A stretch of 64,000 nucleotides of DNA from Candidatus Latescibacterota bacterium (GTDB lineage Bacteria; Latescibacterota; UBA2968; GCA-2709665), in assembly GCA_965248435.1 (NCBI GenBank), contig OZ252100.1, forward strand, positions 3,840,001 to 3,904,000. The letters are read 5' to 3'. The notes beneath the pieces are model-generated. The model saw only the letters and a list, made by a program, of their open reading frames with translations. It searched no databases and was not told where the DNA came from. This document shows positions 9,683 through 33,104 of this stretch, piece by piece. The stretch's first letter is position 1. Every line of letters starts with the position of its first letter. The translations under genes and the position numbers were made by a program.

Positions 9683-10019
9683 AAGCACGGTCCTTTAGAC
9701 GACCTGATGGAAATTAGGTTCTATGGTTCAGAATATTAGGTGTATCTATAGAAAGGCATTCACGTAATAGGGCGCATTATCTATATTATTGGCAGGATTT
9801 ACGCAGTGCATTTTATCTGCCCTACAGGTGGAATCTGCGCACATGGTGCGCGAATGCAGAAGTTGAACTAAACCGCTTCGCGGTGGCCTGCTGCAAGGCC
9901 TTTGCTCTTTGACAACCAGGATATGATACCGTGCAAGTCCGGAGCCACTTTGCAAATGGCTCTGTGCTTCGCATCCTCCTTCTGCTAACAACGTCCACCA
10001 TCAGCAGAAGGAGAGAGCC

Positions 10020-10871
10020 ATGACCAAGCATCGGAAGCGAATGATCCGGGACATGCAGTTGAAAGGTTTAGATCCGGATACGCAGAAGGCGTACGTGAGC
10101 GGAGTGGCCGGGCTGTGTCGTTACTGCAAGACACCGCCCGACCGGCTCAGCGAAGAAGAGATCCGCGCCTATCTGCACTATCTGATCACTGAGCGGAAGC
10201 TGTCCCAAAGCTATGTCAACCAGGTATACAGCGGGCTGAAGTTTCTGTTCCAAACGACGTTGAAGCGTGACTGGGTCGAGTGGGGCATCCCTCGTGCGAA
10301 GAAGGCAAAGAAGCTCCCGGTGGTACTCTCCACAGAGGAAGTGCAGCGGCTGATCGACAGGACCAACAACCTGAAACACCGTACGCTGCTGATGGTCATT
10401 TACTCTGGCGGGCTCAGACTGAGTGAGGCCATCGGGCTAAAGCTTTCCGATATCGACAGTGACCGGATGCTGATCCGTGTGCGGGGCAAAGGCCAAAAAG
10501 AGCGAGAGACGCTTCTGGCCCAGGAGGCCTTAAAGGCACTCCGCGTCTATTGGCGCACCAACCCGTCTCGCGATTGGCTGTTCCCCGGCGAAAGACCGGA
10601 CGCGCCGCTCCATGCTCGCACTGTCCAGAAAGTCTTCGAGCAGGCCTGCCGACGCGCGGAGATACAAAAGCGTGCGAGTGTCCACTCGCTGCGTCACAGC
10701 TTCGCCACGCATCTTCTGGACAACGGAGTCGACATCCGCTTCGTCCAACAACTGTTGGGTCACACGAGCATTCGAACCACCACCGTCTACCTCCACGTCA
10801 CCACCCGGGACCTCACGCGTATCAGAAGCCCCCTGGACCTTTTGGGAGATGAAGACAAGCCGACTTCGTAG
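10020..10871 (+). CDS. Tyrosine recombinase (N-terminal SAM-like + catalytic domain), without the IntI-specific insertion
   Basis: YSGGLRLSE (R), GKGQKER (K), HSLRHSFATH (HxxR), LLGH..TTVY (H, Y); 283 aa; the segment before WLFPG is short. Confidence 0.92.
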   Translation: MTKHRKRMIRDMQLKGLDPDTQKAYVSGVAGLCRYCKTPPDRLSEEEIRAYLHYLITERKLSQSYVNQVYSGLKFLFQTTLKRDWVEWGIPRAKKAKKLPVVLSTEEVQRLIDRTNNLKHRTLLMVIYSGGLRLSEAIGLKLSDIDSDRMLIRVRGKGQKERETLLAQEALKALRVYWRTNPSRDWLFPGERPDAPLHARTVQKVFEQACRRAEIQKRASVHSLRHSFATHLLDNGVDIRFVQQLLGHTSIRTTTVYLHVTTRDLTRIRSPLDLLGDEDKPTS

Positions 10872-10883
10872 CGGAGGTCGGCC

Positions 10884-12068
10884 ATGTCACAGGCTCTCGA
10901 AGTCGCCGACATCTTCCGGGCCCACGGAGACAGCTATCAAGTAGAATACGGTGATCACATGCCGCTTCGGCAGAAGCGGGCCATGCGGGCTATCCAGATC
11001 TGCCGAACAGCTGCGCTGGGCGGACACGTGGAAGTGTGCGGACACTGCGGAGCGAAGCGGATCGCCTACAACTCCTGCCGCAACCGGCACTGTACGAAGT
11101 GCCAGTTCCTGACGACCGAACGATGGATCGACGCTCGTAAAGAGGATCTCCTTCCGATCCCATACTTCCACGTCGTCTTCACGTTGCCCGAGCCCCTGCG
11201 GCCGCTTGCTCTGCGGAACCAGAAGCTGATCTACAACCTGGTGTTTAAAGCCGCATCGCAGAGTCTTCTGGAGCTGGCGCGGGAACGGAAGTATCTTGGA
11301 GCGCAGATCGGCTTTACCGCCGTGCTTCATACATGGTCTCAGACACTCATCGACCACCCGCATCTGCACTGTATCGTAACTGGAGGTGGGCTGACCCACG
11401 ACGGTCAGGAATGGAAGGCGGCGCGACGGGGCTTCTTTCTACCCGTAAAAGTTCTGTCCCGACTGTTCCGGGGGAAGTTCCTTGCGTTCCTGAAGGACGC
11501 GCACCAGGAAGGCCTTCTGGCGTTCCCGGGATTGAGTGCTCCACTGGAAGATGCGTTCTTCGATCTGCTTCGGGGTCTTTACCAGAGAGAATGGACCGTT
11601 TACGTCAAGCCGACTTTTGCGGATCCAGAACGCATCGTGGCCTATCTGGGACGATACACACACCGGATCGCCATCTCCAACCACCGGCTGGTCGCCTGTG
11701 AGGGCGACCGGGTCTCATTCCACTACCGGGACCGCCAGGCCGGCAACCGACGGAAGCTGATGACCGTCGATGCCTACGAGTTCATCCGGCGGTTCCTGCT
11801 TCACATCCTGCCGGATGGCTTCGTGAAGATCCGGCACTACGGACTGCTCAGCAATCGGGGTCGCCGGAAAAAGCTCGCACGATGCCGTAGGCTCCTGGGC
11901 ACTGTATGCACGACGGCTTCCGCAGCCACAAAGGCGACCTGGCAGGACCTTCTGCTCCGGGTAACAGGCATCGATCTTCAGGTCTGTGCGCAGTGCGGAG
12001 GCCCTATGCTCACAGTCGGAACCCTCGCGCCTCTGCGAGCGCCTCCGGCACATGTTGCCGTAGCTTGA
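10884..12068 (+). CDS. IS91-family rolling-circle (HUH, Y2) transposase with N-terminal zinc-binding domain
   Basis: CRTAALGGH..CGHC..YNSCRNRHCTKC; HPHLHC HUH motif; YLGRY (YxxxY); FIRRFLLHILP..IRHYG; GGAGG RBS directly after the recombinase stop. Confidence 0.93.
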   Translation: MSQALEVADIFRAHGDSYQVEYGDHMPLRQKRAMRAIQICRTAALGGHVEVCGHCGAKRIAYNSCRNRHCTKCQFLTTERWIDARKEDLLPIPYFHVVFTLPEPLRPLALRNQKLIYNLVFKAASQSLLELARERKYLGAQIGFTAVLHTWSQTLIDHPHLHCIVTGGGLTHDGQEWKAARRGFFLPVKVLSRLFRGKFLAFLKDAHQEGLLAFPGLSAPLEDAFFDLLRGLYQREWTVYVKPTFADPERIVAYLGRYTHRIAISNHRLVACEGDRVSFHYRDRQAGNRRKLMTVDAYEFIRRFLLHILPDGFVKIRHYGLLSNRGRRKKLARCRRLLGTVCTTASAATKATWQDLLLRVTGIDLQVCAQCGGPMLTVGTLAPLRAPPAHVAVA

Positions 12069-12273
12069 GCTCCTACACCATCCCTTGCCCGCAAGCCCAA
12101 CCACCCAACACGGCAGTAGTCTGTCCACTCTTTGAGCTTGGTAGAGCGACTATGGGATCCTGCGACATCGGCCCCTCCAAACAGCTTCAAATACGGTCCG
12201 ATGACTGGGCCAGCCCAGCGGTCCTTACACAAGAATCACTCATCCAATCCCCATAGGCAGGTGAAGCGGCTTC

Positions 12274-12348
12274 GTTCAACACCGTGTATCCGGAATCCCG
12301 CTCCCGTCCACGCTTCTCCGACTCCGGATACACGCTTAATCGTTAACT
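12274..12348 (+). repeat. attC-like site A0 (closes the recombinase-transposase module)
   Basis: GTTCAAC, stem cgtgtatccgga/tccggatacacg, then GTTAACT. Confidence 0.75.
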
Positions 12349-12383
12349 GCAATCGTGGCCTGGGTGTCAAAGCAAGGAGAACC

Positions 12384-13448
12384 ATGTTGTCTGTAGCTGT
12401 TGTGGCCCTGGTATCTGTCCTGCTTTTGTCAGATTCTTCTTTCGGAAGAGATGTGAACCTTGACCTGACTCAAGCAGTAGCCGAAAATGACAGCGCCGCC
12501 TTGAGAGTCGCTCTAGATTTAGTTGCAGATGTGAATGCTAAGGACCAGAAAGGCATGACAGCTCTAATGGATGCGGCGATGAACCCCAATCCACACATTA
12601 CACAAATGTTGTTGGATTCAGGAGCAGCTGCAAATGCAATAGATTCGGAAGGCAGGACAGCTTTAATGTATGCGGCAGTGAAAGGAAATATCACAACCGT
12701 TCAAACCCTGTTGGACGCGGGTGCCCATATGAACACTCAAAACCGCGGGGGTAGGACAGTTTTGATGCTAGCTTCAGCAGCGGGTTACGAATCAATCGTA
12801 CAGGTGTTACTGGATGCGGGGGCTAGGGTGAATGCAGAAGACGGGAATGGTTACACGGCATTGAGGTGGGCGGAAAAGAATGCTCACATTGGCATTGCGC
12901 GGACGTTGCGGCTTGAGCGGGTACGGTTTAGGCCAGACATTGATATTCCCCTAATACGGGCATCATTTGCCGGAGACATATCCACTGTCCAAGCCTTGGT
13001 TGAGAAGGGCGTTGATGTGAACTTGAGGGACGAAGGTGGCAATACAGCTCTGAAATGCTCAGCTCGAAAGGGACATACAGACATTGTAGAAGTACTGTTG
13101 GATAGAGGTTCAGACGTGGATGCACAAAGTAAGAATGGCCATACAGCCCTGATGGTGGCAGCTCGTAAGGGCCATACGACTATTTTAGAAGTGCTCCTAG
13201 AAAAGGGCGCAGATGTGAACGCCACGGATATATATAGGGTTACGGCTTTGATGGGCGCGGCAGTCAAGTGTCATCGGACTGTCGTGCAAGCGCTTCTGGA
13301 TAATAATGCGGATGTCAATTTGAAAGACAGTAAGGGTAGAACAGCCTTGGAGTTAGCCAAGATGGCCTTAGGATCTGCCGTCGATTCAAACAAGGAACGC
13401 TATTCTGACCTTATTCTGTTGCTCCAGAATGCAGGAGCCGAGGAATAG
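12384..13448 (+). CDS. Cassette 1: secreted ankyrin-repeat protein
   Basis: Repeated GxTALMxAA..GADVN motifs; hydrophobic N-terminus; AAGGAG RBS before ATG 12384. Confidence 0.9.
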   Translation: MLSVAVVALVSVLLLSDSSFGRDVNLDLTQAVAENDSAALRVALDLVADVNAKDQKGMTALMDAAMNPNPHITQMLLDSGAAANAIDSEGRTALMYAAVKGNITTVQTLLDAGAHMNTQNRGGRTVLMLASAAGYESIVQVLLDAGARVNAEDGNGYTALRWAEKNAHIGIARTLRLERVRFRPDIDIPLIRASFAGDISTVQALVEKGVDVNLRDEGGNTALKCSARKGHTDIVEVLLDRGSDVDAQSKNGHTALMVAARKGHTTILEVLLEKGADVNATDIYRVTALMGAAVKCHRTVVQALLDNNADVNLKDSKGRTALELAKMALGSAVDSNKERYSDLILLLQNAGAEE

Positions 13449-13480
13449 CTGACTGTCAAAAGTTCTACGGCCACGACAGC

Positions 13481-13561
13481 AGTTAACAAGGCACTTGCGG
13501 CTCGGGCCGTGCGGCCCTCGGCAAACCCCTACGGGGTTCGCAAGTGCCTAGACCGTTACAC
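13481..13561 (+). repeat. attC-like site A1
   Basis: AGTTAAC, stem aggcacttgcg/cgcaagtgcct, GTTACAC. Confidence 0.85.
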
Positions 13562-13587
13562 GCCAGGCACACAAGGATGGCTCAAAG

Positions 13588-14160
13588 GTGCTGATGCCCG
13601 AAGCCCTATCCATAATCGTGCAGCGGGTCTTTCACTCCAAGCCTCGATCAACACTGTTGACGGAGAGCACTGCACTCCAAGCTAGCGAGTTGGCCGACAC
13701 TTGCCTGGGCCTGCGCGCGCAGATGCTCCACTGTCTGGAGGGGCTTCCCGCGCTGGCCTTCGAACCGGCGCCTGACCGCCTGCCTGGGGAGACTGGCTGG
13801 ACGGCGGGTGAGATCGTCAGCCACAACACCGACCGCCTGTTGTGGGCGCTGACCGAGGCAACCGCGACCGCCGGACTGAGCGAAAGCATTGTTCCGAGGC
13901 CGCCCGAAGTGGTCGCGAGCAACGCAGCGCACGAGCCTATACTTCTAGACCGCTGCCTTGCCCTGGAGGTCGTGCAGGCGGCAAACGGCCATCTCAAGAG
14001 TGTGCTTCCTCTCCTGTTGTCAACCGACCGGGGGGAGACGACAACGAGGACTCACCACGGACCCATGAGCGTCAAATCGTGGCTACTCCTGATTTGTATC
14101 CACGACAGCGACCATTTGGGGCAGTTGCGCGCACGCCAGGAGCCAGGCACGTTGGCTTGA
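13588..14160 (+). CDS. Cassette 2: DinB-like four-helix protein
   Basis: WTAGEIVSH and IHDSDHLGQL histidine motifs. Confidence 0.7.
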   Translation: MLMPEALSIIVQRVFHSKPRSTLLTESTALQASELADTCLGLRAQMLHCLEGLPALAFEPAPDRLPGETGWTAGEIVSHNTDRLLWALTEATATAGLSESIVPRPPEVVASNAAHEPILLDRCLALEVVQAANGHLKSVLPLLLSTDRGETTTRTHHGPMSVKSWLLLICIHDSDHLGQLRARQEPGTLA

Positions 14161-14203
14161 TGAGGAGGCGATGCTTTTTACATGTGGTGTGGATGTGCCC
14201 GGC

Positions 14204-14345
14204 GTGTAACACGACGGGCTGCGGCTCGTGGCATTCGCCCCTCGCCCAACCTGCCTCATCGCGGTCACGGCACTTGCTCAAGAAAATCGTGGGTGGCAAG
14301 CGCCGCGCCCGCTTGGCAGGTTCGCAGCCCGCGAGAACGTTACAC
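14204..14345 (+). repeat. attC-like site A2 (long form)
   Basis: GTGTAAC, outer stem cgggctgcg/cgcagcccg, inner aacctgcc/ggcaggtt, gagaacGTTACAC. Confidence 0.9.
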
Positions 14346-14408
14346 GCCAGCAGGTTCTTCCTGAAACAACCGATAGGATGATGTTCCTGATGGAGTTCCC
14401 TTGGAGCA

Positions 14409-15299
14409 ATGATGAAAGACTCTTTTTCCGTATCTGACATCCCGCCCGAAGAAATCCAAGAGGTAATCGAGGTCACCAACGACTATCTAGTTGCGTTGGC
14501 GGCTGCGTCGAGGGATCAAGATGGGCATGTAAACGTGAACTGGACTGCTAGCGGCATGCTGGCTACCATAGGCGGTGAGCCCACTATCATCACTGCCCGA
14601 CATGTCGCTGAGGCTCTGGAAAGAGAAGAACCGGAGAGTGTTAAGATCTGGACTGACTTCAGAAAGGAAAGTGCAACGGCAGTAATGTCTTTAGACATTA
14701 CGCATGTACGCTTTGTGAAGTCTGCAAAACCGGCGTCAGGGAAGGCCATTGATGGCCCTGACCTGGCATTGATATTACTTCCGGACCACTTGGTTGGATC
14801 AATATCGGCCACCAAGGGCTTCTACAATCTGGACAAACGGCGCGACGCCGCGCTCCAGCAGGAGGGACCGCCCACGACAGGCTTCTGGCTTGCTCGTGGC
14901 TTTCCGTACGAACTCGTGACCGGGATGGATGGCGCCGAGGGTTTCTGCTTCTACTGCCTCAACCACGTGTGCTACCTCAGCGGATCCCACGAAGAGGCTG
15001 GCCATGATTACTACGACCTGGAGTTCGATTTCACATTGATGGACACCCTATCAGCCTCCGGCGAGCATCCAGAGTTGAAGACCAACCAGGGAATGAGCGG
15101 TGGTCCTATATGGCACGTTAAGGTTCACGGCGACTCGGAGGGCGTACCACGAATAAAGGACCCGCAGGGAGATATCCTTCTCTCCGGAGTGATCTTCTAC
15201 GAGTACGACCTAGAGAAGGAAAGCAAGAAGTTTCGCTGTCACGGAATCCGGTCGGTCTATAAAGCGCTCTACGATCTCCTCAAACAGCAGACTGACTAA
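14409..15299 (+). CDS. Cassette 3: trypsin-like serine protease, no signal peptide
   Basis: IITARHV, DLALI and GMSGGP give a His-Asp-Ser triad. Confidence 0.75.
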   Translation: MMKDSFSVSDIPPEEIQEVIEVTNDYLVALAAASRDQDGHVNVNWTASGMLATIGGEPTIITARHVAEALEREEPESVKIWTDFRKESATAVMSLDITHVRFVKSAKPASGKAIDGPDLALILLPDHLVGSISATKGFYNLDKRRDAALQQEGPPTTGFWLARGFPYELVTGMDGAEGFCFYCLNHVCYLSGSHEEAGHDYYDLEFDFTLMDTLSASGEHPELKTNQGMSGGPIWHVKVHGDSEGVPRIKDPQGDILLSGVIFYEYDLEKESKKFRCHGIRSVYKALYDLLKQQTD

Positions 15300-15316
15300 C
15301 CCTTTGGTGCGCCGGC

Positions 15317-15455
15317 GTGTAACACGAGCACCCACGGCTCCGGCGCATACGCGCCTCCGCTGAAACCTGCCTCCCGCCTTACCAGTCTGCTCTGATAGAT
15401 GCCTGACGGCCTTCGTGAAGAGTCGGCAGGTTCGTGGGTGCCGAGAACGTTAAGT
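15317..15455 (+). repeat. attC-like site A3
   Basis: GTGTAAC, gcacccacg/cgtgggtgc, gagaacGTTAAGT. Confidence 0.9.
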
Positions 15456-15484
15456 GAAACCCGACGAAGGGGTTTACGCAAATC

Positions 15485-16132
15485 ATGCAATCTAAGCGGG
15501 CTGTGGTCCTCCAGCGCATCGCTGCAGAAATCTGGGGGAACCTTACTGACAATGTGATAAAAGTCGCGATCGATGGTGTAGATGGCGCCGGCAAGACGAC
15601 ATTTGCAGACGAGCTCGCTGAAATCATCGAAAACCGACCTATAATCCGTGCATCAGTAGATTTCTTTCACAATCCCCGAGCAATCAGATACCGACAGGGA
15701 AAAGATTCGCCGTTAGGTTTTTTCGAAGACTCGTACAACTACGAGGAACTTCTCGGCTTACTTCTCAATCCTCTAAGTCCTGGAGGGTCTGGGCGCTTTC
15801 GCACTAAGGCATTCGACCACAGGACCGACGCCCACGTTGAGTCACCCGAACTGTACGCGGAGCCAGAGTCGATTCTCTTGTTCGACGGGATTTTCTTGCA
15901 TAGACCTGAACTTTGGGACATATGGGATTATTCAATCTACTTGGACGTGAATTTCGAGAACTCAATTCCGAGATGTGCTCTCCGTGGAGAGGGAAATCCG
16001 GATCCCTATGCCGAGCAGAACCGCCGCTACATAGAGGGGCAGAAAATTTACATCCAAAACTGCCAACCCAGTGAACGGGCAACAATAATCGTCGACAACA
16101 ATGATTTGGATGCTCCCTTTATCGTTTCTTAA
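15485..16132 (+). CDS. Cassette 4: uridine-kinase-like P-loop kinase
   Basis: VAIDGVDGAGKTT Walker A; LLFDGIFL; RRYIEGQ. Confidence 0.8.
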   Translation: MQSKRAVVLQRIAAEIWGNLTDNVIKVAIDGVDGAGKTTFADELAEIIENRPIIRASVDFFHNPRAIRYRQGKDSPLGFFEDSYNYEELLGLLLNPLSPGGSGRFRTKAFDHRTDAHVESPELYAEPESILLFDGIFLHRPELWDIWDYSIYLDVNFENSIPRCALRGEGNPDPYAEQNRRYIEGQKIYIQNCQPSERATIIVDNNDLDAPFIVS

Positions 16133-16166
16133 TGCTGGTACGGCGGGCGTATCCGCGTCGGACTTC

Positions 16167-16294
16167 ACTTAACACGTCCACTTGCGCTGCGGCGCATTCG
16201 CGCCTTGGCCTGACGGCAACCCGCCTTCCTCCTTCGCTGCTTCGCAGCTTCGGAGGGCAAGTCGGCGGGTTCGCAAGTGGCGGGAACGTTATAT
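16167..16294 (+). repeat. attC-like site A4
   Basis: ACTTAAC, ccacttgcg/cgcaagtgg, GTTATAT. Confidence 0.9.
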
Positions 16295-16321
16295 GCAATG
16301 CAGCCAGGAGAGGGTTTTCGA

Positions 16322-17044
16322 ATGGAGAGTCGATTGGATTCGGACCATCCAGATCCCATCCTTGCAGAGCAGGTAGAGTACTACCGTGCTCGGGCTCCAG
16401 AGTACGATGACTGGTACCTCCGCAGGGGGCGATACGATCACGGGCAAGAGCTGAATGACCGATTCAGGGCAGAAATCAACACCGTTGAAACCGAGGTGAG
16501 GGCTCTTGCGAATGTGGACAGGATTTTGGAACTGGCTGCTGGTACCGGCTGGTGGACGAGGCTCTTTCGGGAGACAGGTGCCAGAGTGACGGCCGTGGAT
16601 TCTTCGCCGGAGGTCCTAGCAAAGAACCGGGGTAGGAATGGAGACGAGAAGATCGAGTACGTAGAGGCCGATGTACTCAGTTGGACGCCGCGCGGAAGGT
16701 ATGATCTGGTCTTCTTCGGCTGCTGGCTCTCTCATGTCCCCCCCGACCAGTTTGAGACCTTCTGGAATAGAGTTGGAGAATCTGTGAAACCGGGAGGCAA
16801 AGTGGCTTTCGTGGACACACTGCGAGAAGGAATCAAGACCGTGGCGGCGCGAGACCATCACCGGAGAGAGAATGAAGGCGACATCACCGAACGCTACCTA
16901 AACGACGGAACGCCGTTCAAGATTTACAAAGTCTTCTACCAACCAGAGGAGTTGACAGAACGGCTACAACGACTGGGATGGGAAGTCAAGGTCAAGACCA
17001 GCGGAGAGTACTTCCTTTTCGGATCGGGTGAAAGGGAAAACTAA
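16322..17044 (+). CDS. Cassette 5: class I SAM-dependent methyltransferase
   Basis: ILELAAGTGWW motif I; YDLVFF..WLSHVP. Confidence 0.85.
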   Translation: MESRLDSDHPDPILAEQVEYYRARAPEYDDWYLRRGRYDHGQELNDRFRAEINTVETEVRALANVDRILELAAGTGWWTRLFRETGARVTAVDSSPEVLAKNRGRNGDEKIEYVEADVLSWTPRGRYDLVFFGCWLSHVPPDQFETFWNRVGESVKPGGKVAFVDTLREGIKTVAARDHHRRENEGDITERYLNDGTPFKIYKVFYQPEELTERLQRLGWEVKVKTSGEYFLFGSGEREN

Positions 17045-17088
17045 CCCCCACAGAAATGTGTTTTCTCTCGGCAACCTGGCTGCACTGC

Positions 17089-17175
17089 ATATAACACGAC
17101 GGGCTGCGGCTCCGGCCATTTGGCCTCCGCACCAACCTGCCTGCGGCAGGTTCGCAGCCCGCGAGAACGTTATAG
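17089..17175 (+). repeat. attC-like site A5 (short form)
   Basis: ATATAAC, cgggctgcg/cgcagcccg, GTTATAG. Confidence 0.9.
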
Positions 17176-17252
17176 GAAATGCCAGCAGCTCAACTTACTG
17201 GGTGGTTGTTAAGAATGTTCGGAACTATTGAATCGAAAGAGGTGCGCTGAAC

Positions 17253-17906: not shown

Positions 17907-17943
17907 GGATCTAACCAATTAGAAACATGACTGCTGGCACTTC

Positions 17944-18037
17944 CTATAACACGACCACTTGCGCTGCGTCGCTTTCGCTCCTTGGCCTTTACGGCAACCC
18001 GCCTTTGGCGGGTTCGCAAATGGCGAGAACGTTATGC
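17944..18037 (+). repeat. attC-like site A6
   Basis: CTATAAC, ccacttgcg/cgcaaatgg, GTTATGC. Confidence 0.9.
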
Positions 18038-18143
18038 GCCAATGCTGTTTCTGTGGTGGAAACTGCAGACTAGGGAGCAGACCCCCAGGGCAATTGTTTG
18101 TACACCCAGATTGCCTATGATGGTGTAACGAGCAAGAAAGTTC

Positions 18144-18680: not shown

Positions 18681-18766
18681 ACGTCGGGTTCGGATAGAGG
18701 CAAGACCGAGAAAGTCAGGCAAACGACTGCTCTTGTATTTCTGTCGAGACACAGAAACAGCACAGC

Positions 18767-24605: not shown

Positions 24606-24685
24606 CAAGCCGTCTGCGGCTCGGGGCAGTCGCCCCTCGCTCAACTTGCCTTCGGCAAACTCGCAGAACGGCCAGAACGTTAACT
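24600..24685 (+). repeat. attC-like site A12
   Basis: GCATAAC, gccgtctgcg/cgcagaacggc, GTTAACT. Confidence 0.85.
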
Positions 24686-24713
24686 GCAATGGCGGTGGGG
24701 GGAAGCAGGAGTG

Positions 24714-25586: not shown

Positions 25587-25634
25587 AAAAGCGCAGGCCA
25601 CCGTTTTGTAATGGAGAGTCAGCACCGCCACAGC

Positions 25635-25779
25635 AGTTAACACGGCACTCCCGGCTCAGCGCCTGGTTGCGCTTCGCCCAACCTTCCTTCGCGGTCACGG
25701 CGCTTGCTTTAAAGATAAAATGCGGTTTGCAACCGCCGCGCCCGCTTGGCAGGTTCGCAGCCCGCGAGAACGGTTAAAT
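25635..25779 (+). repeat. attC-like site A13 (outer arms do not pair; chimeric)
   Basis: Left arm cggcactccc, right arm cgcagcccg. Confidence 0.88.
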
Positions 25780-25886
25780 GACATGGGATGAAATGAGACT
25801 ACATTCTTGCGGTATATCCTCAGAATAGAAGGAGATATGCTGCAAATTTCGTGATTCACTAATGAACGGGCAACAAGACAAGGAAT

Positions 25887-26786
25887 ATGATGAAAGAACT
25901 TGCTGCAAGAGCCTTGGAAGATATCGAGCACTCAGTACCTCATGGGATATGGGGTGCTCACAACGGCTGTGCGATCCTCGCGGGCATATTTCTGATCGAA
26001 GAGAACTTGATCGAGGAAGGTGCGAAGGAAGCGGTGAAGCAATTGCTCAATTCGAGTAGAGTTAAGAGGGACCAGCAAGGAAACGAAAGGCGCCTCATCA
26101 GCTTGGGTGATTTCAGAGAAAGATTGATATCTTGCCTAGCGCTGGACCCGGAGCAAGTAAAAGAAATCGGCCACGATGTAATCTTCTCTTCGTACGTACT
26201 CAAGGCTTTGGATTTCCTTTCGATCTCACCCTGGGAGTCGTTGCTGGAGAGCATGGTAGAGTTGATCGGCGCGATTAAGGAATCCACGCCAGGTTGGATC
26301 ACCGTGAATGGAGAAAATCAACCGAGAGAACTGGACAAAGTTGACTCAAGTCTGCCGACAAACTACTGGCATGCCTTCGCGGCCTTAGATAGGCCCATCC
26401 AAATGGAAATAGGAGATATGCAGTTAGGACATGTTCTTACTCACGGGCATGCGATCGAGATGTTCAAATTGTACGGAAACAAGAAATCAGCGGTTGCATT
26501 TGATATAGCCTATCGCAAGCGATTGCACGGACTGCTATTGGCAAACAGTGAACAGAAAGAAAGAACAGCGCTTCCTCGTAGAAGGTTAGATCCACGCCTC
26601 GCGAGCTATTGGAGGCACGTGAAAACCAACGGCGACATGGAAGGCCATGTTTACAAGTACGCCTTCAGCTTCCTGGATCTGAATAGGCATGATCTGCGGA
26701 CCGAGGCATTCGAGGCATTCGGAAGGGTTGTTTGGCCCAACAAGCCGCTGGAGACAACGGCGACAAACGATGCGTCTAAGCCCTGA
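25887..26786 (+). CDS. Cassette 14: hypothetical protein with His-rich motifs
   Basis: 299-aa ORF filling the cassette; GAH, IGHDVI, LGHVLTHGH, EGHVYKY. Confidence 0.65.
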   Translation: MMKELAARALEDIEHSVPHGIWGAHNGCAILAGIFLIEENLIEEGAKEAVKQLLNSSRVKRDQQGNERRLISLGDFRERLISCLALDPEQVKEIGHDVIFSSYVLKALDFLSISPWESLLESMVELIGAIKESTPGWITVNGENQPRELDKVDSSLPTNYWHAFAALDRPIQMEIGDMQLGHVLTHGHAIEMFKLYGNKKSAVAFDIAYRKRLHGLLLANSEQKERTALPRRRLDPRLASYWRHVKTNGDMEGHVYKYAFSFLDLNRHDLRTEAFEAFGRVVWPNKPLETTATNDASKP

Positions 26787-26841
26787 TGTTAGTAAGAACT
26801 TGGCTCAACTATCAGTTTGACCAGAGATAGTATCCCACGTC

Positions 26842-26933
26842 ATTTAACACGCCCACTTGCGCTGCGGCGCATTCGCGCCTTGGCTTTTGGCAACCCGCCT
26901 GCAGCGGGTTCGCAAGTGGCGAGAAGGTAGGAC
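26842..26933 (+). repeat. attC-like site A14 with degenerate right core (GTAGGAC)
   Basis: ATTTAAC, ccacttgcg/cgcaagtgg, then gagaagGTAGGAC instead of gagaacGTTA. Confidence 0.8.
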
Positions 26934-26959
26934 GCCAAGTCTGTACAGGCGGGTAGCCT

Positions 26960-28267
26960 ATGGATGAAGAGATCTTGAATGAGTCAATCGTATTCCTTGG
27001 TCTATGTGAGAAAGTCCAAACGGTTCCCGATGGCCATCCGGACTTTCTGAAACAGAACATACTAGGACTCAAGACTACTGTCTTCTCTCCCTTCTTTCCT
27101 ATGGGAATGAAAGGGTTTAGTCTTGCCTTCTGTATGAAGTGGCGGGATGTGCCATTTTCTGCCAAGATTAGAGGCTTGCATCCCGACGGGAAGGAAGCGT
27201 TTCGTATCGAATTCAACGCTGAATTTGAGCCACATGAGTCCGGACAGCGAAAGAAACCAGGTGAGGCCAGCCAATCAAGGTTTAGTGTAATTGCATCAGA
27301 CGATCCGCCATCTTGGGCATTTGTGACTTTCCCTGTGCCTGAAAAATCAGTGGTGGCAACGCCGGGTTTTATGAAAATCTGTGCCGCAGTTGCCGAGGAG
27401 GAGTCAGTCATTGGCCAGGTAAGATTTGTGCATGCGAAGCCTGCCCCACTCACTCCAGATAGAATCGACGCGATCAAGAGCAACCCACAAGCAGCGAAAA
27501 CAGTCTGGTACACAATCGGGTGCACGGAGTGTTCGGACGCTATCAAAGCCTACGCTGGGATCGGTCGCAACATGGATTCGGAAGAAGATGGCTGGATTTG
27601 GCAACATGACCTACCTAAGACGTTCAAATGCAAATGTGCGAAAACGAGGTTGGATCTATCCTATATGCGCGATGGTCTTCACGGCCTCTTGGGTTCCATC
27701 TATAGCATAGGCGAGGACGTAGAGTTCACCCGTCTCTACGAAAGAAGCGCTCTTGAGTCAATTTCAGGCAAGTATTGGAAGATACTGCGAGATTCGGAAA
27801 GGGAAGAAGATCTGCAGAAGTTCATCGAGGGAGCTCCAGCACTTTTGCAGTGTTTTAGTCCTGCACGGATCTTTCACAAGAGCCCCATCCTGAGTAAATA
27901 CAGTGTTGATTTCGCCATTCTCGACACTCAGGGGCACCTAATCCTTATTGAGATAGAAAGACCAGGAATCCGCTTGCTTCGTAAGGATGGCGGAATGGCG
28001 GCCGAACTCGGACATGCTTTCACTCAAGTAAGTCAATGGTTACTGGAATTTGACTTGCATCGACAGGCTTGCCTGGAATGTATTGGGGTCGACCCAAAAG
28101 AGGTTGTCCAAGTTAGAGGTGTAGTTATCGCAGGACGAGAAGCCGAGTATCCGGCAGAACATTTGGCCAGGCTAAAATGGGAAGACCGAGGTAAGATAAG
28201 CTTCCTTACATACGACGATCTTGGCCGGAGCTATATCAGTCTTATTCGAAGGTTCCATGACCTGTAG
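26960..28267 (+). CDS. Cassette 15: Shedu-like (DUF4263) PD-(D/E)xK nuclease with a long N-terminal region
   Basis: C-terminal EEDLQKFI, VDFAI, LIEIERP, AFTQVSQW, VVIAGRE, FLTYDDL. Confidence 0.78.
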   Translation: MDEEILNESIVFLGLCEKVQTVPDGHPDFLKQNILGLKTTVFSPFFPMGMKGFSLAFCMKWRDVPFSAKIRGLHPDGKEAFRIEFNAEFEPHESGQRKKPGEASQSRFSVIASDDPPSWAFVTFPVPEKSVVATPGFMKICAAVAEEESVIGQVRFVHAKPAPLTPDRIDAIKSNPQAAKTVWYTIGCTECSDAIKAYAGIGRNMDSEEDGWIWQHDLPKTFKCKCAKTRLDLSYMRDGLHGLLGSIYSIGEDVEFTRLYERSALESISGKYWKILRDSEREEDLQKFIEGAPALLQCFSPARIFHKSPILSKYSVDFAILDTQGHLILIEIERPGIRLLRKDGGMAAELGHAFTQVSQWLLEFDLHRQACLECIGVDPKEVVQVRGVVIAGREAEYPAEHLARLKWEDRGKISFLTYDDLGRSYISLIRRFHDL

Positions 28268-28283
28268 ATCGTGCAGACTCGGC

Positions 28284-28427
28284 ATCTAACACGCCGGGCT
28301 GCGGCTCCGGCGCATTCGCGCCTCCGGCCCAACCTGCCTTTCGCGTTCACGGCGCTTGCTTGGCGACGAACAAAAGGGGCAAGCGCCGCGCCCACGGGCA
28401 GGTTCGTGGGTGCCGAGAACGTTAAAT
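28284..28427 (+). repeat. attC-like site A15 (chimeric)
   Basis: Left arm cgggctgcg, right arm cgtgggtgccg. Confidence 0.88.
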
Positions 28428-28507
28428 GCAATTGCGGCTCACAGACAAGCCGGCGACGCGTCCTGCGCCGCAAACAAAACTAGAGCTACGGAAGTAGGAG
28501 TACACTC

Positions 28508-29422
28508 ATGGCTGAACAAACCGAAACTGAATCACCCGAATGCAGTAATGTCGCCCCTCTCGTGGGATTCTGGGGCTGTGATGCGGAAACGGACGAGATA
28601 CCTGTTGGGTTTGATGTCGCACTCGTCAGGAATCCGAGGGTGGATGTTGATGAGGAATGGTCAAAGAAGATTGGGACGTCGGCTACCGATGAGCTGCGAA
28701 GAGCTCAGTGGGCACTTGAACACAGGTATCGTGGTGAGCCGGGAATCCATTTGGGATCAAAGGAGGATCTTTCGGATCAGTTGTTGCAGACTGCGTTGCT
28801 TGCTCTTTGGATCACTAAGCCCACCGGAGCCAGGATCACGCACCTGCTGAGATACCGTACCCCCTGGCACTCTGCGAATGCAGCATCTGTCGCGTTCTAC
28901 CGAGGGGATTCCTTTAGACCTAATCGTCGATATGAAAGGACTACTTTCGCCCCCGACGATCTGGATGACCTCGGGACAGTGTTCAAGGGCGTGAAATCAA
29001 TATTCGACATGAAGAAGGGACTCAGGCGAGCACTCTACCATCTGAGCGGGGCCTTACACTTGTGGTTCTGGGATGCTCGATTCGCGATGTTCACAGTCGT
29101 TCTCGAAAGCCTGTTCACCACAGACGCACAAGAGATCACGCACAAGATCAGCGAACGCATCGCCTTCTTCCTTAAGGACACTCCAGCAGAGAGGCGATGT
29201 GTGTTTGATGACGTAAAGGAAATCTACCGTACAAGATCGAGAATTGTCCACGGACTCGATCTCAAGGCTACTGAAGAACAAACCGTCAGCCTCTTGGCGG
29301 AACTAGAGGCGCTTGTTCACCACGTTTTGAAGAGGATTTTGAAAGATTCAAAGCTGGTAGAGGAGTTCTCTGGCAATGCCAAGCGACGTGAACAGTTCCT
29401 AACTGACCTTGTGTTCTCCTAA
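28508..29422 (+). CDS. Cassette 16: ApeA-like HEPN domain protein
   Basis: LESLF..ITHKISERIA..IYRTRSRIVHG (RxxxxH). Confidence 0.8.
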   Translation: MAEQTETESPECSNVAPLVGFWGCDAETDEIPVGFDVALVRNPRVDVDEEWSKKIGTSATDELRRAQWALEHRYRGEPGIHLGSKEDLSDQLLQTALLALWITKPTGARITHLLRYRTPWHSANAASVAFYRGDSFRPNRRYERTTFAPDDLDDLGTVFKGVKSIFDMKKGLRRALYHLSGALHLWFWDARFAMFTVVLESLFTTDAQEITHKISERIAFFLKDTPAERRCVFDDVKEIYRTRSRIVHGLDLKATEEQTVSLLAELEALVHHVLKRILKDSKLVEEFSGNAKRREQFLTDLVFS

Positions 29423-29479
29423 GTCTTTATGGAGCTTGGCCAACTTGCCTTCGTAGCAAGCTGGCCGGGCCGCAACAGC

Positions 29480-29622
29480 ATTTAACACGAGCACCCCCGG
29501 CTTCGGCGCATTCGCCCCTCGCCCAACCTGCCATTTCACTGTCACGGCGCTTGCTTAAGAAAACCGTGGGTGGCAAGCGCCGCGCCAGCTTGGAAGGTTC
29601 GCAGCCCGCGAGAACGTTAGCC
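29480..29622 (+). repeat. attC-like site A16 (chimeric)
   Basis: Left arm gcacccccg, right arm cgcagcccg. Confidence 0.88.
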
Positions 29623-29716
29623 GAAATTCCTTACCCCACCCCGTCTGTGAAGGCACGCAGATTCGTAACCACAGTCGATCGGAGACCGTTTCGACCGGTG
29701 GGACGGAGATCTTATC

Positions 29717-30166
29717 TTGAGATACGGAATGAGTGCCGCGGCCGTGATCGTCCAACACAATCGAGTGCTGCTGGTCCATCATTCTAAGCGGGGCGAGTTT
29801 GACTTCTGGTTGCCCCCCGGCGGCGGCCTTGAAGGACAGGAGTCTATCTTTGACTGCGCCTCGCGAGAGGCACTGGAAGAAACGAGTCTTGAGGTTGAGT
29901 TAGACAGAATTATCTACATTCAAGAATTTGTCGAATCTGACTATCACTTCTGCAAGTTTTTCATCCTGTGCCGAAGTTACAATGGCACCATTTCTCTCAA
30001 GAACAAAACAGCCGAGGAGGATTTCCTGGTAGACGCTCGTTTCTTCTCTGAGAGTGACCTAAGCAGCATGGATGTCAGGCCAGATATACTGAAGGAACAA
30101 TTCTGGTCAGATCTTCGGGCGGGCTTTCCAAAAACGAGATATCTCGGGTTGCACACGATAGGTTAA
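29717..30166 (+). CDS. Cassette 17: NUDIX hydrolase
   Basis: PGGGLEGQESIFDCASREALEET. Confidence 0.9.
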   Translation: MRYGMSAAAVIVQHNRVLLVHHSKRGEFDFWLPPGGGLEGQESIFDCASREALEETSLEVELDRIIYIQEFVESDYHFCKFFILCRSYNGTISLKNKTAEEDFLVDARFFSESDLSSMDVRPDILKEQFWSDLRAGFPKTRYLGLHTIG

Positions 30167-30243
30167 AGACGCAAATGCTTTGACGCGTGCTTGAGGGCTG
30201 CCCTCAATGGAAATACCGAGGGGGGCAGTTCTTCAAGAACTTC

Positions 30244-30340
30244 GGCTAACACGTCTACTTGCGCTACGGCGCATTCGCGCCTTGGCCTCCGGCAACCCGC
30301 CTGACGGCGGGTTCGCAAGTGGCGAGAACGAACGTTATAC
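30244..30340 (+). repeat. attC-like site A17
   Basis: GGCTAAC, acttgcg/cgcaagt, duplicated gaac, then GTTATAC. Confidence 0.88.
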
Positions 30341-30369
30341 CACATTAGTCAGGACAGAAAGGCAACAGA

Positions 30370-30828
30370 ATGAAGGATTGCATGACCTGCGAACTGACGG
30401 AGAGACGCAGGCTGGGCCAAGCTCCACTTTGGGACTGCATCTATCGCACTCAGTTTTGGGATGTGGCGCATGCTTACAATACCGCATTGCCTGGCTGGCT
30501 TGTGTTGATTGTTCAGAGACATATAGAAGCGATCGATGAACTGACTGAGCAGGAAGCCGTTGAGTTGGGGGGCTTGATTCGCCGGGTTTCTTTGGCGCTA
30601 AAAAAGATCACTGGATGTGCGAAAACATACGTGATCCAATTTGCCGAGCATAAAAATCATCCGCATGTGCACTTCCATATTGTGCCACGTATGTCTGATC
30701 AGCCCGAGGACCGACGAAGCACAAAGATCTTTGCCTATCTGGGCGTCTCTCAAGAGGAAAGTGTGAGTGAACATCAGATGAATGACATTGCCACCAAGAT
30801 TCAGAGCATTCTGTTGTCAAATGATTGA
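30370..30828 (+). CDS. Cassette 18: HIT-family hydrolase
   Basis: CxxC at the N-terminus; HVHFHIVPR. Confidence 0.9.
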   Translation: MKDCMTCELTERRRLGQAPLWDCIYRTQFWDVAHAYNTALPGWLVLIVQRHIEAIDELTEQEAVELGGLIRRVSLALKKITGCAKTYVIQFAEHKNHPHVHFHIVPRMSDQPEDRRSTKIFAYLGVSQEESVSEHQMNDIATKIQSILLSND

Positions 30829-30845
30829 AAGTCTAAACTCACGTC

Positions 30846-30988
30846 GTATAACACGGCACCCCCGGCTCAGCGCCTGACGGCGCTTCGACCCAACCCGCGC
30901 TCGCGGTCACGGCGCTCGCCTTAAAGACAAAAGCCGGGGCAACCTCCGCGCCCGCTCCGCAGGTTCGGGCGTGCCGAGAACGTTACAC
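30846..30988 (+). repeat. attC-like site A18
   Basis: GTATAAC, cggcac/gtgccg, GTTACAC. Confidence 0.9.
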
Positions 30989-31102
30989 GCAACCGGCCCC
31001 TAGCAAGGCAGGGCGGCGCGTCCTGCGCCGCCAAACACAAAGGTTGCAAAAACCGACAAAATTGGCGTCTATTAGAGAGATAATAGGTAAGGATCTTGAA
31101 TA

Positions 31103-31342
31103 ATGCCGACGGTATTGAGGGAAGGTCCCTATCGATTCTTTTTCGTATCACTCGACCGAGAAGAACCCGCGCATATTCACATACGGCGGGAGAACATGGT
31201 AGCAAAGTTTTGGCTTGATCCTATGGCGCTGGAAAGGGCTGGTGGATTCAGAGCTTCCGAACTGAACCGGATCGCCCAGCTTGTTCAAGAGCATCGAGAA
31301 CACTTCTTGGAGCAATGGCATGGCTTCTTCGCAGAAGAGTAA
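31103..31342 (+). CDS. Cassette 19a: DUF4160 protein (putative toxin-antitoxin component)
   Basis: MPTVLREGPYRFFF..EPAHIHI..AKFWLDP..W..FF. Confidence 0.85.
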   Translation: MPTVLREGPYRFFFVSLDREEPAHIHIRRENMVAKFWLDPMALERAGGFRASELNRIAQLVQEHREHFLEQWHGFFAEE

Positions 31343-31637
31343 GTCTGAAGCAAGAGCGCAAGAGGTGACACTCACTGACGAAGTGTTGAGCATTAGCCTC
31401 GTGGACGGTCGTTCCGTCAGTGTGCCGCTTTCGTGGTATCCTCGTCTGTGGTACGGCAGTGAGGAAGAACGCAAGAACTTCGAACTATTTGGAGATGGAT
31501 CGTACATTCACTGGCCTGATCTCGACGAAGATCTCACAGTTGAAGGTATCCTCGAAGGAAAGCGATCGGCCGAAGGTCCCAGCTCGCTGAAGAAATGGCT
31601 CGAGACAAGAGAAGGAAAATCCAAACCCACAGCTTGA
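31320..31637 (+). CDS. Cassette 19b: DUF2442 protein (putative toxin-antitoxin partner)
   Basis: LVDGRSVSVPLSWYPRL..IHWPDLDEDLTVEGIL; overlaps 19a. Confidence 0.85.
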   Translation: MASSQKSKSEARAQEVTLTDEVLSISLVDGRSVSVPLSWYPRLWYGSEEERKNFELFGDGSYIHWPDLDEDLTVEGILEGKRSAEGPSSLKKWLETREGKSKPTA

Positions 31638-31712
31638 GGATACATCCAACTGAGTTGTGCGTACGCGGCCTTGCCATCCCCGGCAAGGCCGCAACTACAA
31701 GGTCCCGGCAGC

Positions 31713-31852
31713 GTGTAACACGACGGGCTGCGGCTCGGGGCATTCGCCCCTCGCGCAACCTGCCTTATCGCGGTCACGGTGCTTGCCGATGAAAGGCGGG
31801 TTGCAACCGCCGCGCCCGCTCGGCAGGTTCGTGGGTGCCGAGACCGTTACCT
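31713..31852 (+). repeat. attC-like site A19 (chimeric; last intact site)
   Basis: Left arm cgggctgcg, right arm cgtgggtgccg, GTTACCT. Confidence 0.88.
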
Positions 31853-32064
31853 GCCATGCAGGTTTTTGAGTTTCCGGTTTCAATAGAAGGGGCAAACCAA
31901 ACAACAGCTCAGGGGCTTCTGACGAGGCCCCTTGTTTGTCAGGTTGATAGGTACTTGGCGCGCGCGCGGCAGCGCGCCCGACTGACACCTCGTTTCAGTC
32001 TGAGCCCAGCCTGGCGATGAATCTTTCACATCGCTGGGGGAATTCCACGCGAAGCGAGAAGCGA

Positions 32065-32997
32065 ATGGATCGAACCACGCTTGGCAGAACGGGCCTCGAG
32101 GTCAGCGTCGCGGGAATCGGCGGCGGAGGTTCGAGCCGGATCGGCAAGAGAACCGGGAAGACGGACCGGGAGTCGGCCGACATCGTCCTGAGGGCGTTCG
32201 AGGCCGGCGTCAACTTCATCGACACGTCTGAGGGATACGGTACCGAACCGATCATCCGGCTGGCTCTCGAGGACATCCCACGCGACCAGCTGATCATCTC
32301 GACCAAGAAAAGCTCGAAGGGTCGAACAGCCGACTCTGTCGTCACAAGCTGCGAAGAGAGCCTGGAGCGGCTCGGGACCGACACCATCGACGTCTACAGC
32401 CTCCACAGCGTCTTCCCCGACGACTACGCGCGATGCCGCGAAGAGCTCTACCCAGGGCTGGTCAAACTGCAGGAAGCGGGCAAGATCCGGTACATCGGCA
32501 TCACGGAGATCTTCAACTCGGACAAGGCGCACGACATGCTGAAAGCCGCCCTCGCCGACGACCTGTGGGACGTCGCCATGGTCGGGTTCAACATCCTGAA
32601 CCAGACCGCGCGGGACGCTGTTTTCGCGAGGGCGATCGAACAGGACGTCGGGATTCAGGTGATGTTCGCCGTTCGCAAAGCAATGAGCGACCCCGCGTTC
32701 CTCGTCGAGGTAGTCGGCGGGCTGATCGAGGCCGGTCAGCTGGATGCGGGCGATCTGGACGACGTCGGCCATCCGCTCGACTTCCTCGTCCACGAGACCG
32801 GCGCGGTCAGCATTCCCGACGCAGCCTACCGCTTCTGCCGATACGAGCCCGGCACCCACGTCATTCTGTCCGGAACCGGCAATCCCGATCACCTGCAGGA
32901 AAACATCGCGAGCTTCGAGCGCCCACCGCTTCCCCAGGCCGACGTCGACCGCCTGAAGCGCATCTTCCGCAACGTCGATTCCATCACCGGTCAGTAG
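32065..32997 (+). CDS. Aldo/keto reductase
   Basis: LGRTGLEVS, GVNFIDTSEGYG, SLERLGTDTIDVYSLH, GKIRYIG. Confidence 0.92.
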   Translation: MDRTTLGRTGLEVSVAGIGGGGSSRIGKRTGKTDRESADIVLRAFEAGVNFIDTSEGYGTEPIIRLALEDIPRDQLIISTKKSSKGRTADSVVTSCEESLERLGTDTIDVYSLHSVFPDDYARCREELYPGLVKLQEAGKIRYIGITEIFNSDKAHDMLKAALADDLWDVAMVGFNILNQTARDAVFARAIEQDVGIQVMFAVRKAMSDPAFLVEVVGGLIEAGQLDAGDLDDVGHPLDFLVHETGAVSIPDAAYRFCRYEPGTHVILSGTGNPDHLQENIASFERPPLPQADVDRLKRIFRNVDSITGQ

Positions 32998-33039
32998 GTG
33001 ACCGCTCGATTCGAATTCGCGGTCGTGGGGTGGGGATGC

Positions 33040-33104
33040 TCTCGGCGCATTTTGTTTTCTGAGGCCACGGCCATTTCGGGTGCCCGCAGAACGTTAGCCG
33101 AAAG
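33040..33104 (+). repeat. Degenerate right half of an attC-like site
   Basis: ttcgggtgcccgcagaacGTTAGCCGAAAG; no left AAC arm found. Confidence 0.55.

Follow-up and report, generated by a model that had tools for sequence, protein, structure and literature searches.

An IS91-family element with an IntI-like recombinase at an attI-like site before a cassette array in a Latescibacterota genome

The cassette array and the IS91-family element at its head

The stretch of DNA analysed here, called the window below, comprises 64,000 nucleotides (genome positions 3,840,001-3,904,000) of a Candidatus Latescibacterota genome coded G000, which is 5.67 Mb long, lies on two contigs, and has a GC content of 56.6% and a completeness of 97.5%; coordinates are window positions unless marked as genome positions. 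The window holds an integron-type array of gene cassettes and, between an attI-like region and the first cassette, an insertion sequence (IS) of the IS91 family with two genes, one for an IntI/Xer-like tyrosine recombinase and one for a Y2 HUH transposase (Table 1). Both genes point in the same direction as the cassettes, as the original prediction from the bare sequence had stated, and the position from which that prediction let the system begin, 9862, is the exact left end of the mobile unit.

Nineteen cassettes in one orientation occupy 12342-31855, each closed by an attC-type hairpin, and a degenerate twentieth unit follows, ending in an attC remnant (about 33059-33096) that reads …CGCAGAAC and then GTTAGCC. 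The earlier count of 19 cassettes and 20 hairpins behind a recombinase-transposase operon is thus recovered as 19 attC sites plus the right-end hairpin of the element. The sites (13478-31855, all on the + strand) are 87-151 nt long, are spaced 518-2127 nt apart, and share the ends TAACACG … GGTTCG … GAGAAC, followed by GTTA; in a covariance model built from all 19, which is specific to this lineage, the hairpin into which their alignment folds has 16 consensus pairs, and compensatory changes occur in 13 of these. With the same model, at least 74 sites in about nine clusters were found in G000 (150 of 2054 candidates scored). Sites were paired along the array by motif, the R' half of an integrated site belonging to the next cassette. 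Each cassette opens with nine bases (GTTANNNNN) that repeat the R'' box of its own attC in reverse complement, for example GTTAACTGC and GCAGTTAAC in cassette 1. Of the 18 testable cassettes, 16 show perfect complementarity and two a single mismatch, the chance of a match being about 1/4096 per cassette (six free positions); one cassette could not be tested, as the R' of site 14 is degenerate (damaged). Cassette starts complementary to their own R'' are the signature of integron cassettes inserted singly, as circles, with a crossover between the G and the TT. In the terms of IntegronFinder and Cury et al., this is a cluster of co-oriented R''/L''/L'/R' attC sites at cassette-sized spacing. All 18 readable R' cores are GTTA, and GTTRRRY fits only 5/18, in agreement with the earlier remark that many cores break this consensus.

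The element starts with GTTGAACTAAACCGCTTCGCGG (GTTGAACTAAACCGCTTC) and ends with …CACGCTTAATC, after which comes GTTA. Near its right end, a box at 12263-12280 (GAAGCGGCTTCGTTCAAC) can pair with the 18 bases that begin the element, and is followed by a hairpin with an 11-bp stem (GTGTATCCGGA…TCCGGATACAC) and by GCTTAATC. If the two ends are joined, as in a hypothetical circle, the junction folds into a two-tier hairpin (z -4.0 on the top strand and -5.5 on the bottom strand, relative to shuffled sequences). Judged from these ends, the element is built and bounded like a cassette, with an attC-like right end. The transposase belongs to the IS91 family by its score on NF033538 (449.9 bits, cut-off 125), with 206.6 bits on PF04986 and 110 bits on PF14319, and the ends agree with this assignment, being discrete, repeated in six copies, free of target-site duplication, adjacent in 6/6 copies to the tetranucleotide GTTA, where characterised members have GTTC, CTTG or GTCC, and furnished with a right-end hairpin. 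The copies are 97.4-100% identical, contig depth over the element is four to six times that of its flanks, and contigs break at 9861 and 12345.

The six insertion sites have much in common. Each of the six left ends is preceded immediately by a region of about 130 nt that has TCTATAGRAAGGCATTCNCGAAC some 115 nt upstream and GGTTCG or GGTGCG…GCAGWA at the junction. In the window this attI-like region ends …GAATGCAGAA before the GTT of the crossover and carries, about 115 nt upstream of the junction, the motif TCTATAGAAAGGCATTCACG, which occurs seven times in the genome, four of them at left flanks of the element. All six right ends read …AATC, then GTTA, then a cassette-like start, and in five of the six copies the 9-10 bases behind the element form a perfect complement to the R'' of the first attC, located 614-1539 nt downstream. 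With the copies lettered A to F, the left flanks group as {A,D}, {C,F}, B and E, which disagrees with the grouping of the element cores as {A,B,C} versus {D,E,F}; the element has therefore entered pre-existing sites several times separately. Six near-identical copies with discordant flanks make the pair a mobile element and not a fixed platform, and the original view that it is not an IS fails on this count as well as on the very large size of the family, whose members lie mostly on contigs of 1-5 kb. Nor does the pair head the platform, as had been proposed, since it has cassette-like boundaries and the attI-like site lies upstream of it.

The profile that matches the left flanks of 6/6 copies includes those flank sequences themselves. 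A control profile, made from the loci of recombinases without a transposase in related genomes only, has one match in G000, which is the left flank of copy C, ends at the junction, and has an E value of 2.1e-4. Because this is the single fully independent profile match, we regard homology between the flanks and the attI regions of relatives as probable, not proven. The attI-like region precedes the first inserted unit, and no platform integrase gene adjoins it at the window locus; the gene with DUF1016_N and SNase-like domains stands where related platforms carry a short recombinase gene.

Table 1. Features of the locus, in window positions
Feature	Position	Strand	Basis or remark
Flanking gene, DUF1016_N + SNase-like	8648-9682	+	Pfam; outside the mobile unit
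attI-like region ending at the crossover	9717-9861	+	Flank profile, motif
IS91-family element, 2480 bp, one of six copies	9862-12341	+	Shared ends, GTTA after right end
Tyrosine recombinase, 283 aa, IntI/Xer-like	10020-10871	+	PF00589, PF13495
Y2 HUH transposase, 394 aa, IS91 family, N-terminal zinc-binding domain	10884-12068	+	PF04986, PF14319, NF033538
Structured right end (oriIS-like, attC-like)	12263-12341	+	
Cassette 1, ankyrin-repeat protein and attC (13478-13564)	12342-13555	+	Pfam
Cassettes 2-19, one attC family (TAACACG … GGTTCG … GAGAAC/GTTA)	13555-31855	+	
attC 1-5	13478-13564, 14201-14348, 15314-15458, 16164-16297, 17086-17178	+	Covariance model
attC 6-10	17941-18040, 18765-18915, 19942-20049, 20549-20696, 22805-22899	+	Covariance model
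attC 11-15	23536-23654, 24597-24688, 25632-25782, 26839-26936, 28281-28430	+	Covariance model
attC 16-19	29477-29625, 30241-30339, 30843-30991, 31710-31855	+	Covariance model
IS110-family transposase gene	20707-21798	-	PF01548, PF02371; adjoins attC 9 within the array
Terminal unit, aldo/keto reductase gene (32017-32997) and degenerate attC remnant	31856-33096	+	

The recombinase and its relatives

The recombinase of the element has the catalytic residues R-K-H-R-H-Y, and both IntI insertions are absent from it in alignment. It scores 219 bits on NF040815 (archaeal XerA/"integron integrase") and 195.5 bits on TIGR02249 (IntI), for which the cut-off is 265, in two stretches that skip model positions 177-236. 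By sequence, its best match among solved structures is VchIntIA/IntI4 (2a3v, 125.8 bits), with about 42 residues missing between the matched stretches, and it is 33% identical to the canonical IntI of a related genome, G004. The alignment and the gaps against TIGR02249 and 2a3v all confirm that this 283-aa protein is without the IntI insertion, as had been noticed at first. It also falls below the equivalogs for XerC (188.8 bits, cut-off 335) and XerD (184.3 bits, cut-off 330), which places it outside the single-copy XerC and XerD proteins, and separate Xer-like genes are found elsewhere in G000. Under the integrase definition of IntegronFinder and Cury et al. (PF00589 together with the IntI-specific region near patch III), it does not count as an integron integrase. 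The absence of IntI that had been noted for the window extends to the whole G000 genome, which has no TIGR02249 match above the cut-off and no IntI-specific remnant. Besides the six IS-borne genes, G000 has no other intact member of the recombinase family; the recombinase genes that stand alone, without a transposase (solo genes), are remnants only (genome 4954371-4954625 and 4650359-4650832), so that the six IS-borne genes would be the only candidates for any present cassette recombination.

We compared 41 related genomes (coded G001 etc.), of which 21 are of the same family as G000. The attC family occurs in 24 of the 41, including 17 of the 21 in the family, and the Y2 transposase in three. 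Since the transposase is absent from most genomes that hold arrays, the HUH enzyme does not itself belong to the cassette machinery, contrary to the role originally proposed for it. Canonical IntI scores above the cut-off in two genomes, G004 at the level of the family (464 bits) and G036 at the level of the order, and G036 has no match to the attC model. In addition, relatives carry solo short recombinases that are 43-56% identical to that of the window, lack the insertion, and have no transposase nearby. At 12 loci in 10 genomes including G000, an array is preceded on the same strand by such a gene or its remnant; the gene is intact in G003, G018, G038, and G004 (three loci), and a remnant in G002, G012, G016, G017, G020, and G000 itself. 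TIGR02249 is the best or near-best family for the solo proteins (205-241 bits). Directly downstream of the relatives' solo genes is an attI-like layout that ends at the start of the first cassette, and the junction after the gene is complementary to the first attC in three of five loci (G003, 9/9; G018, 10/10; G004 locus L107, 10/10). One further G004 locus, G008, and G021 had no adjacent array among the matches listed.

A tree of 43 sequences, from which seven fragmentary or over-long rows had been dropped and which is rooted at the midpoint only, unites two groups of solo recombinases, the IS-borne group (98/98), and canonical IntI, which has a long stem, in one clade with a support of 92/91. 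The Xer proteins, those of G000 among them, fall outside. The internal order of the four groups is not settled by the tree. Outside the IS-borne clade, the nearest relatives of the window recombinase are array-heading recombinases and IntI, and a phylogeny against IntI and Xer, which had been put forward as a check, groups it with the former and apart from the latter.

G004 contains both kinds of system. Its copies of the element encode proteins 55% and 61% identical to those of the window, with the same architecture, and two of these copies immediately follow a canonical IntI, co-oriented and 52.8% identical to IntI1; one of them is then followed by a cassette with an 8-base complement. The attC type of this IntI-linked cassette differs from the window family. 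Two of the intact array-heading recombinases of G004, at locus L104 (6646-8004, -) and locus L107 (5233-6447, -), have an N-terminal extension of about 110-150 aa with the motif …PGxxGRxxV…KIKTxPGRxW…, and coding sequence for this motif also lies upstream of the recombinase genes of G003 and of G004 locus L109. The HARP domain has a fold that binds junctions of single- and double-stranded DNA; the match of the L104 and L107 extensions to it is below threshold (21.9 and 18.3 bits, cut-off 25). It might be that the extension stands in for the missing IntI insertion.

Beyond the lineage, the recombinase family is very large, with 7312 proteins at E ≤ 1e-20 among 8000 scored, mostly 283-284 aa long and encoded on contigs of 1-5 kb. 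Recombinase-transposase pairs at 45-49% identity occur in metagenome-assembled genomes of Pirellulales, Terriglobia, and Eremiobacterota and in metagenomes, the best distant loci being those of Pirellulales. Copies from all three groups keep the end motifs, namely GAACTAAACCGC… at the left, CAATCCCCATAG… at the right, the box complementary to the left end, and the hairpin. In Pirellulales-type copies, a GTTC box lies 13-14 nt before the left junction in 7 of 11 sites, a pattern that resembles a recombinase half-site. A GGTTCG box precedes the GTT crossover by 11-14 nt in the resident attC sites and in the attI-like sites of G000, G003, and G018; this box and the GTTC box of the Pirellulales-type flanks may represent a common half-site of the recombinases. 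The attC model (R1) has no match in 20 distant loci, which carries little weight because the model is lineage-specific. Beside the Pirellulales-type elements, a neighbouring 218-aa recombinase was considered as a canonical IntI and rejected as Xer-like (79.9 bits on TIGR02249).

Interpretations of the locus

Our preferred reading, in which we place somewhat more belief than doubt, is that the locus would be a chromosomal integron-variant array run by insertion-less IntI-like recombinases and invaded at attI by an IS91-integrase element. The platform of this lineage would consist of a short (about 270-450 aa) insertion-less IntI-like recombinase, an attI-like site of about 130-190 nt, and cassettes, all on one strand. 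At the window locus the platform recombinase gene would have been lost, and the 2.48-kb element would now occupy the place directly after the attI-like site, inserted at the GTT crossover that also serves the cassettes. What has been observed is the anatomy of the locus, the copy number and insertion sites of the element, the phylogeny, and the association in relatives; which enzyme cuts where, and whether the array is active at present, we infer as follows. The HUH transposase would release the element as a single-stranded circle, as for IS91; the joined ends would fold as an attC-like two-tier hairpin; the element's own recombinase would integrate the circle at attI-like or attC sites; and the same IS-borne recombinase would be the most likely enzyme, if any, still to move resident cassettes in trans. 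The short recombinases of the lineage would be the integrases of this integron variant. As the array is real, IntI is absent, and short recombinases of the same clade stand at array heads, a cassette system with an insertion-less integrase is plausible. The original proposal of a distinct capture system with a non-IntI recombinase thus survives in part, in that an insertion-less clade does head arrays, and fails in part, in that the pair in the window is not its fixed machinery.

Several results weigh against this reading. On the side of the element, GTT at both ends, the lack of a duplication, and the palindromic right end also fit an HUH insertion beside GTTN; GTT at both junctions is ambiguous as to the enzyme because an ordinary IS91-type HUH insertion predicts the same. 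The boxes of the element's right end (CCGGATAC…AATC) differ from those of the array attC sites (GGTTCG…GAGAAC), and the IS recombinase, to judge from these boxes, may be unable to recognise the resident attCs. Copy F has no downstream attC. Neither circle junctions nor empty attI sites appear in the contigs of four sequencing runs, data at a level that could not reveal them. Among distant pairs, array-like repeats were found downstream at none of seven loci (at least 5.8 kb downstream in each; two of the loci are maybe one context), so that the association of homologous pairs with arrays, whose absence the original prediction had named as refuting it, is lacking there. On the side of the platform, the link between the G000 flanks and the attI of relatives consists of one independent profile match plus resemblance in motif and spacing, and four G000 arrays without the IS show neither a recombinase nor an attI-like site in the 900 nt upstream of each. 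In G001, a genome of the same genus, the recombinase is on the strand opposite to the arrays. Finally, by BLAST no array cassette is duplicated elsewhere in the genome, apart from the IS110 element and a reductase gene described below, and without duplicated cassettes, recent cassette movement is not evident.

The G001 gene (locus L101, 6460-7425, -) is that genome's only member of the family, with a 322-aa open reading frame (ORF) that scores 240.9 bits on TIGR02249 and opposite-strand attC sites on both sides; every other locus examined has the co-oriented layout.

The strongest alternative, to which we give a good deal less credence while taking it seriously, is an ordinary IS91 element moved by its HUH transposase alone, beside relic arrays (CALINs) that solo recombinases or IntI had built earlier. 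Insertion would then be next to GTTN, perhaps with a preference for the hairpin-prone or single-stranded DNA of attI and attC, and the recombinase would serve the IS only, for example in circle resolution or regulation. Passages of PMC13181058 describe IS91 as forming single-stranded circles of which only the bottom-strand circle inserts, and give as rules of the family the lack of a duplication, a GTTC/CTTG/GTCC tetranucleotide target beside oriIS, a GTTC-type cleavage site at terIS, and subterminal palindromes; the ends of our element fit these rules. The array-less distant pairs, the many relatives' solo recombinases that are pseudogenes, the lack of recent cassette duplicates, and the dissimilar right-end boxes would all be expected under this alternative, as would the presence of an IS110-family element in three G000 arrays, given that other IS types target attC. 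A four-base target, however, cannot account for six of six insertions at attI-like sites of about 130 nt when GTTA is everywhere. The closest kin of the recombinase outside the IS clade either head arrays or are IntI, the joined right and left ends make an attC-like structure, and the G004 element has a canonical integron's attI as its site, all of which speak against this alternative. The GTTC box at Pirellulales-type left flanks, resembling a recombinase half-site as it does, points the same way.

The operon could also be fixed, dedicated machinery of the array, with the HUH enzyme supplying nicks or single-stranded DNA, as the original prediction read it. It has the orientation of the cassettes and directly precedes cassette 1, the genome has no IntI, and cassettes follow five of the six copies. 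This explanation is nevertheless improbable, and for the most part the copy number and the existence of arrays without a transposase have already refuted it: the near-identical copies with discordant flanks indicate mobility, the attI-like site is upstream of the operon and not downstream, arrays are far more widespread in relatives than the transposase (24 versus three of 41 genomes), and distant pairs have no arrays. A shade less probable still are arrays built by a canonical IntI since lost from the genome, with the short recombinases as unrelated bystanders, for although canonical IntI exists in the family and the order, is co-oriented with an attI and a cassette in G004, and intI loss beside arrays is common according to the part of PMC4889954 consulted, which calls such arrays CALIN, IntI is found in two genomes versus 24 with the attC family, G036 has no match to the attC model, the IntI-linked cassette of G004 is of another attC type, short recombinases or their remnants lie exactly at the array heads of 12 loci, and G000 has no IntI-specific remnant.

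Comparison with known systems, and neighbouring features

The window array resembles chromosomal (sedentary) integrons in its mostly single-gene, promoter-less cassettes, its imperfectly palindromic attC sites (R''-L''-loop-L'-R'), its crossover within GTT after the G, its cassette starts complementary to their own R'', its attI-like site at the head, and its cargo of small enzymes, a defence gene, and pairs of toxin-antitoxin-like type. Integrons with a co-oriented, "inverted" integrase form a class of their own, and the canonical IntI of G004 is co-oriented with its cassettes too. Unlike chromosomal integrons, the locus has no integrase with the IntI-specific insertion, the platform recombinases of relatives are insertion-less and some are extended at the N terminus, and all cores are GTTA, with GTTRRRY in the minority. 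The recombinase shares with VchIntIA/IntI4 and IntI1 the C-terminal …SPLD motif, the catalytic residues, and the clade, and differs from them by the residues (about 42) missing in the region of the IntI-specific helices. In the terms of IntegronFinder, the window array would be a CALIN beside an "integrase + IS91".

The element itself is of a known kind. Smyshlyaev, Barabas and Bateman, in the portion of their preprint consulted (bioRxiv 10.1101/542381), place the tyrosine recombinases of IS91 elements in an "Integron-like" subgroup without the IntI insertion. Our element agrees with that subgroup in its Y2 transposase with a zinc domain and the upstream insertion-less recombinase of 283 aa, in its multiple copies without target duplication, and in its structured right end and conserved end motifs. 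It is unlike other IS91-recombinase elements in that, here and in G004, it occupies recombination sites of integrons and has cassette-like boundaries. The IS1111-attC group of the IS110 family and group IIC-attC introns also target attC sites, and our element is like them in being site-specific at integron recombination sites and spread over several arrays of one genome. Those elements move by a DEDD transposase or by reverse splicing and have no integron-type integrase, whereas ours encodes an IntI-like recombinase and mimics a cassette. Group IIC introns are mentioned in the abstract of PMC7923331.

That IS91-borne recombinases are close to IntI, and that IS and introns target attC, was thus already known. 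In our literature search we found no description of arrays headed by insertion-less IntI relatives, no paper tying IS91-borne recombinases to attC arrays or attI sites, and no account of a cassette-like IS91-integrase element at attI/attC crossovers, or of such arrays and such an element together with canonical IntI in one bacterial family, although such an absence is no proof of novelty. Tentatively, and with more doubt than confidence, we put forward two linked claims: that insertion-less recombinases may run true cassette capture, so that part of what is called CALIN would be a second kind of integron, and that IS91-integrase elements may be self-mobilising "integrase cassettes", by way of a single-stranded circle made by the HUH enzyme, an attC-like fold, and integration at attI or attC.

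The IntI-specific insertion, by which integrons are both defined and detected in software, is thought to let the enzyme read folded single-stranded attC. If arrays are headed by insertion-less relatives, either the insertion is not needed for a cassette system or the sites are read differently, for example as duplex DNA through the common GGTTCG box or with the help of the N-terminal extension, and many "orphan" arrays may have an integrase after all. The closeness of IS91-borne recombinases to IntI would gain a functional meaning, in that an element making single-stranded circles and carrying an integron-type integrase lands at integron crossovers. An enzyme that produces single-stranded DNA, joined to a recombinase that reads its hairpins, would be a living model of integron origin, and would also allow integrase genes to be carried from one array to another. 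Both the origin of integrons and the role of the recombinase in IS91-type elements thereby become directly testable with standard recombination assays.

With respect to cargo, Pfam matches in cassettes 2-19 include a DinB-like protein, a kinase-like protein, two methyltransferases, a tyrosine phosphatase, an APH-like phosphotransferase, an SDR-family enzyme, a nucleotidyltransferase, a Shedu SduA_C protein, NUDIX and HIT proteins, and a DUF4160/DUF2442 pair, and several cassettes have no Pfam match; this cargo is typical of sedentary chromosomal integrons. The Shedu cassette encodes a 435-aa protein (26960-28267, +) with the SduA C-terminal domain (PF14082, 64.7 bits), an anti-phage defence gene in the form of a cassette. 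The DUF4160 and DUF2442 proteins are encoded by overlapping small ORFs in one cassette (31103-31637, +), and together they may form a toxin-antitoxin-like module of the array-stabilising sort.

The IS110-family gene within the array is part of a repeat unit (about 20663-21922) present by BLAST in three 98%-identical copies in three G000 arrays, the others at genome 1444289-1445548 and 2066291-2067550; the element resembles the attC-targeting IS elements of the IS1111-attC type. Two aldo/keto reductase genes lie at the end of the array (32017-32997 and 33173-34165, +), and paralogues of the first, with 93-95% identical DNA, occur both 2.2 kb behind copy F and immediately ahead of the flank of copy B.

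A 6.4-kb contig from another sample and study holds the IS, with seven differences over 9844-12345, and its loose ends match the flanks of copy C, so that the same or a very close strain occurs elsewhere. At genome 4624459-4625491 (+) there is another tyrosine recombinase, 27% identical and with a 370-aa frame, behind which the sequence matches positions 1-110 of the attI-like profile (60.9 bits), with no attC seen after that. Upstream of the element, an ORF on the minus strand at 8627-9688 was considered as an IntI gene and rejected, as it has no Pfam match and the plus-strand ORF there is the DUF1016/SNase gene. A diverged copy of the latter flanks copy B (genome about 1449800-1450900), with an identity lower than that of the IS itself. 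Further upstream of the locus lie two tandem paralogues of about 840 aa each (3280-5790 and 5899-8448, +), with pectate-lyase-like and GH28 beta-helix domains.

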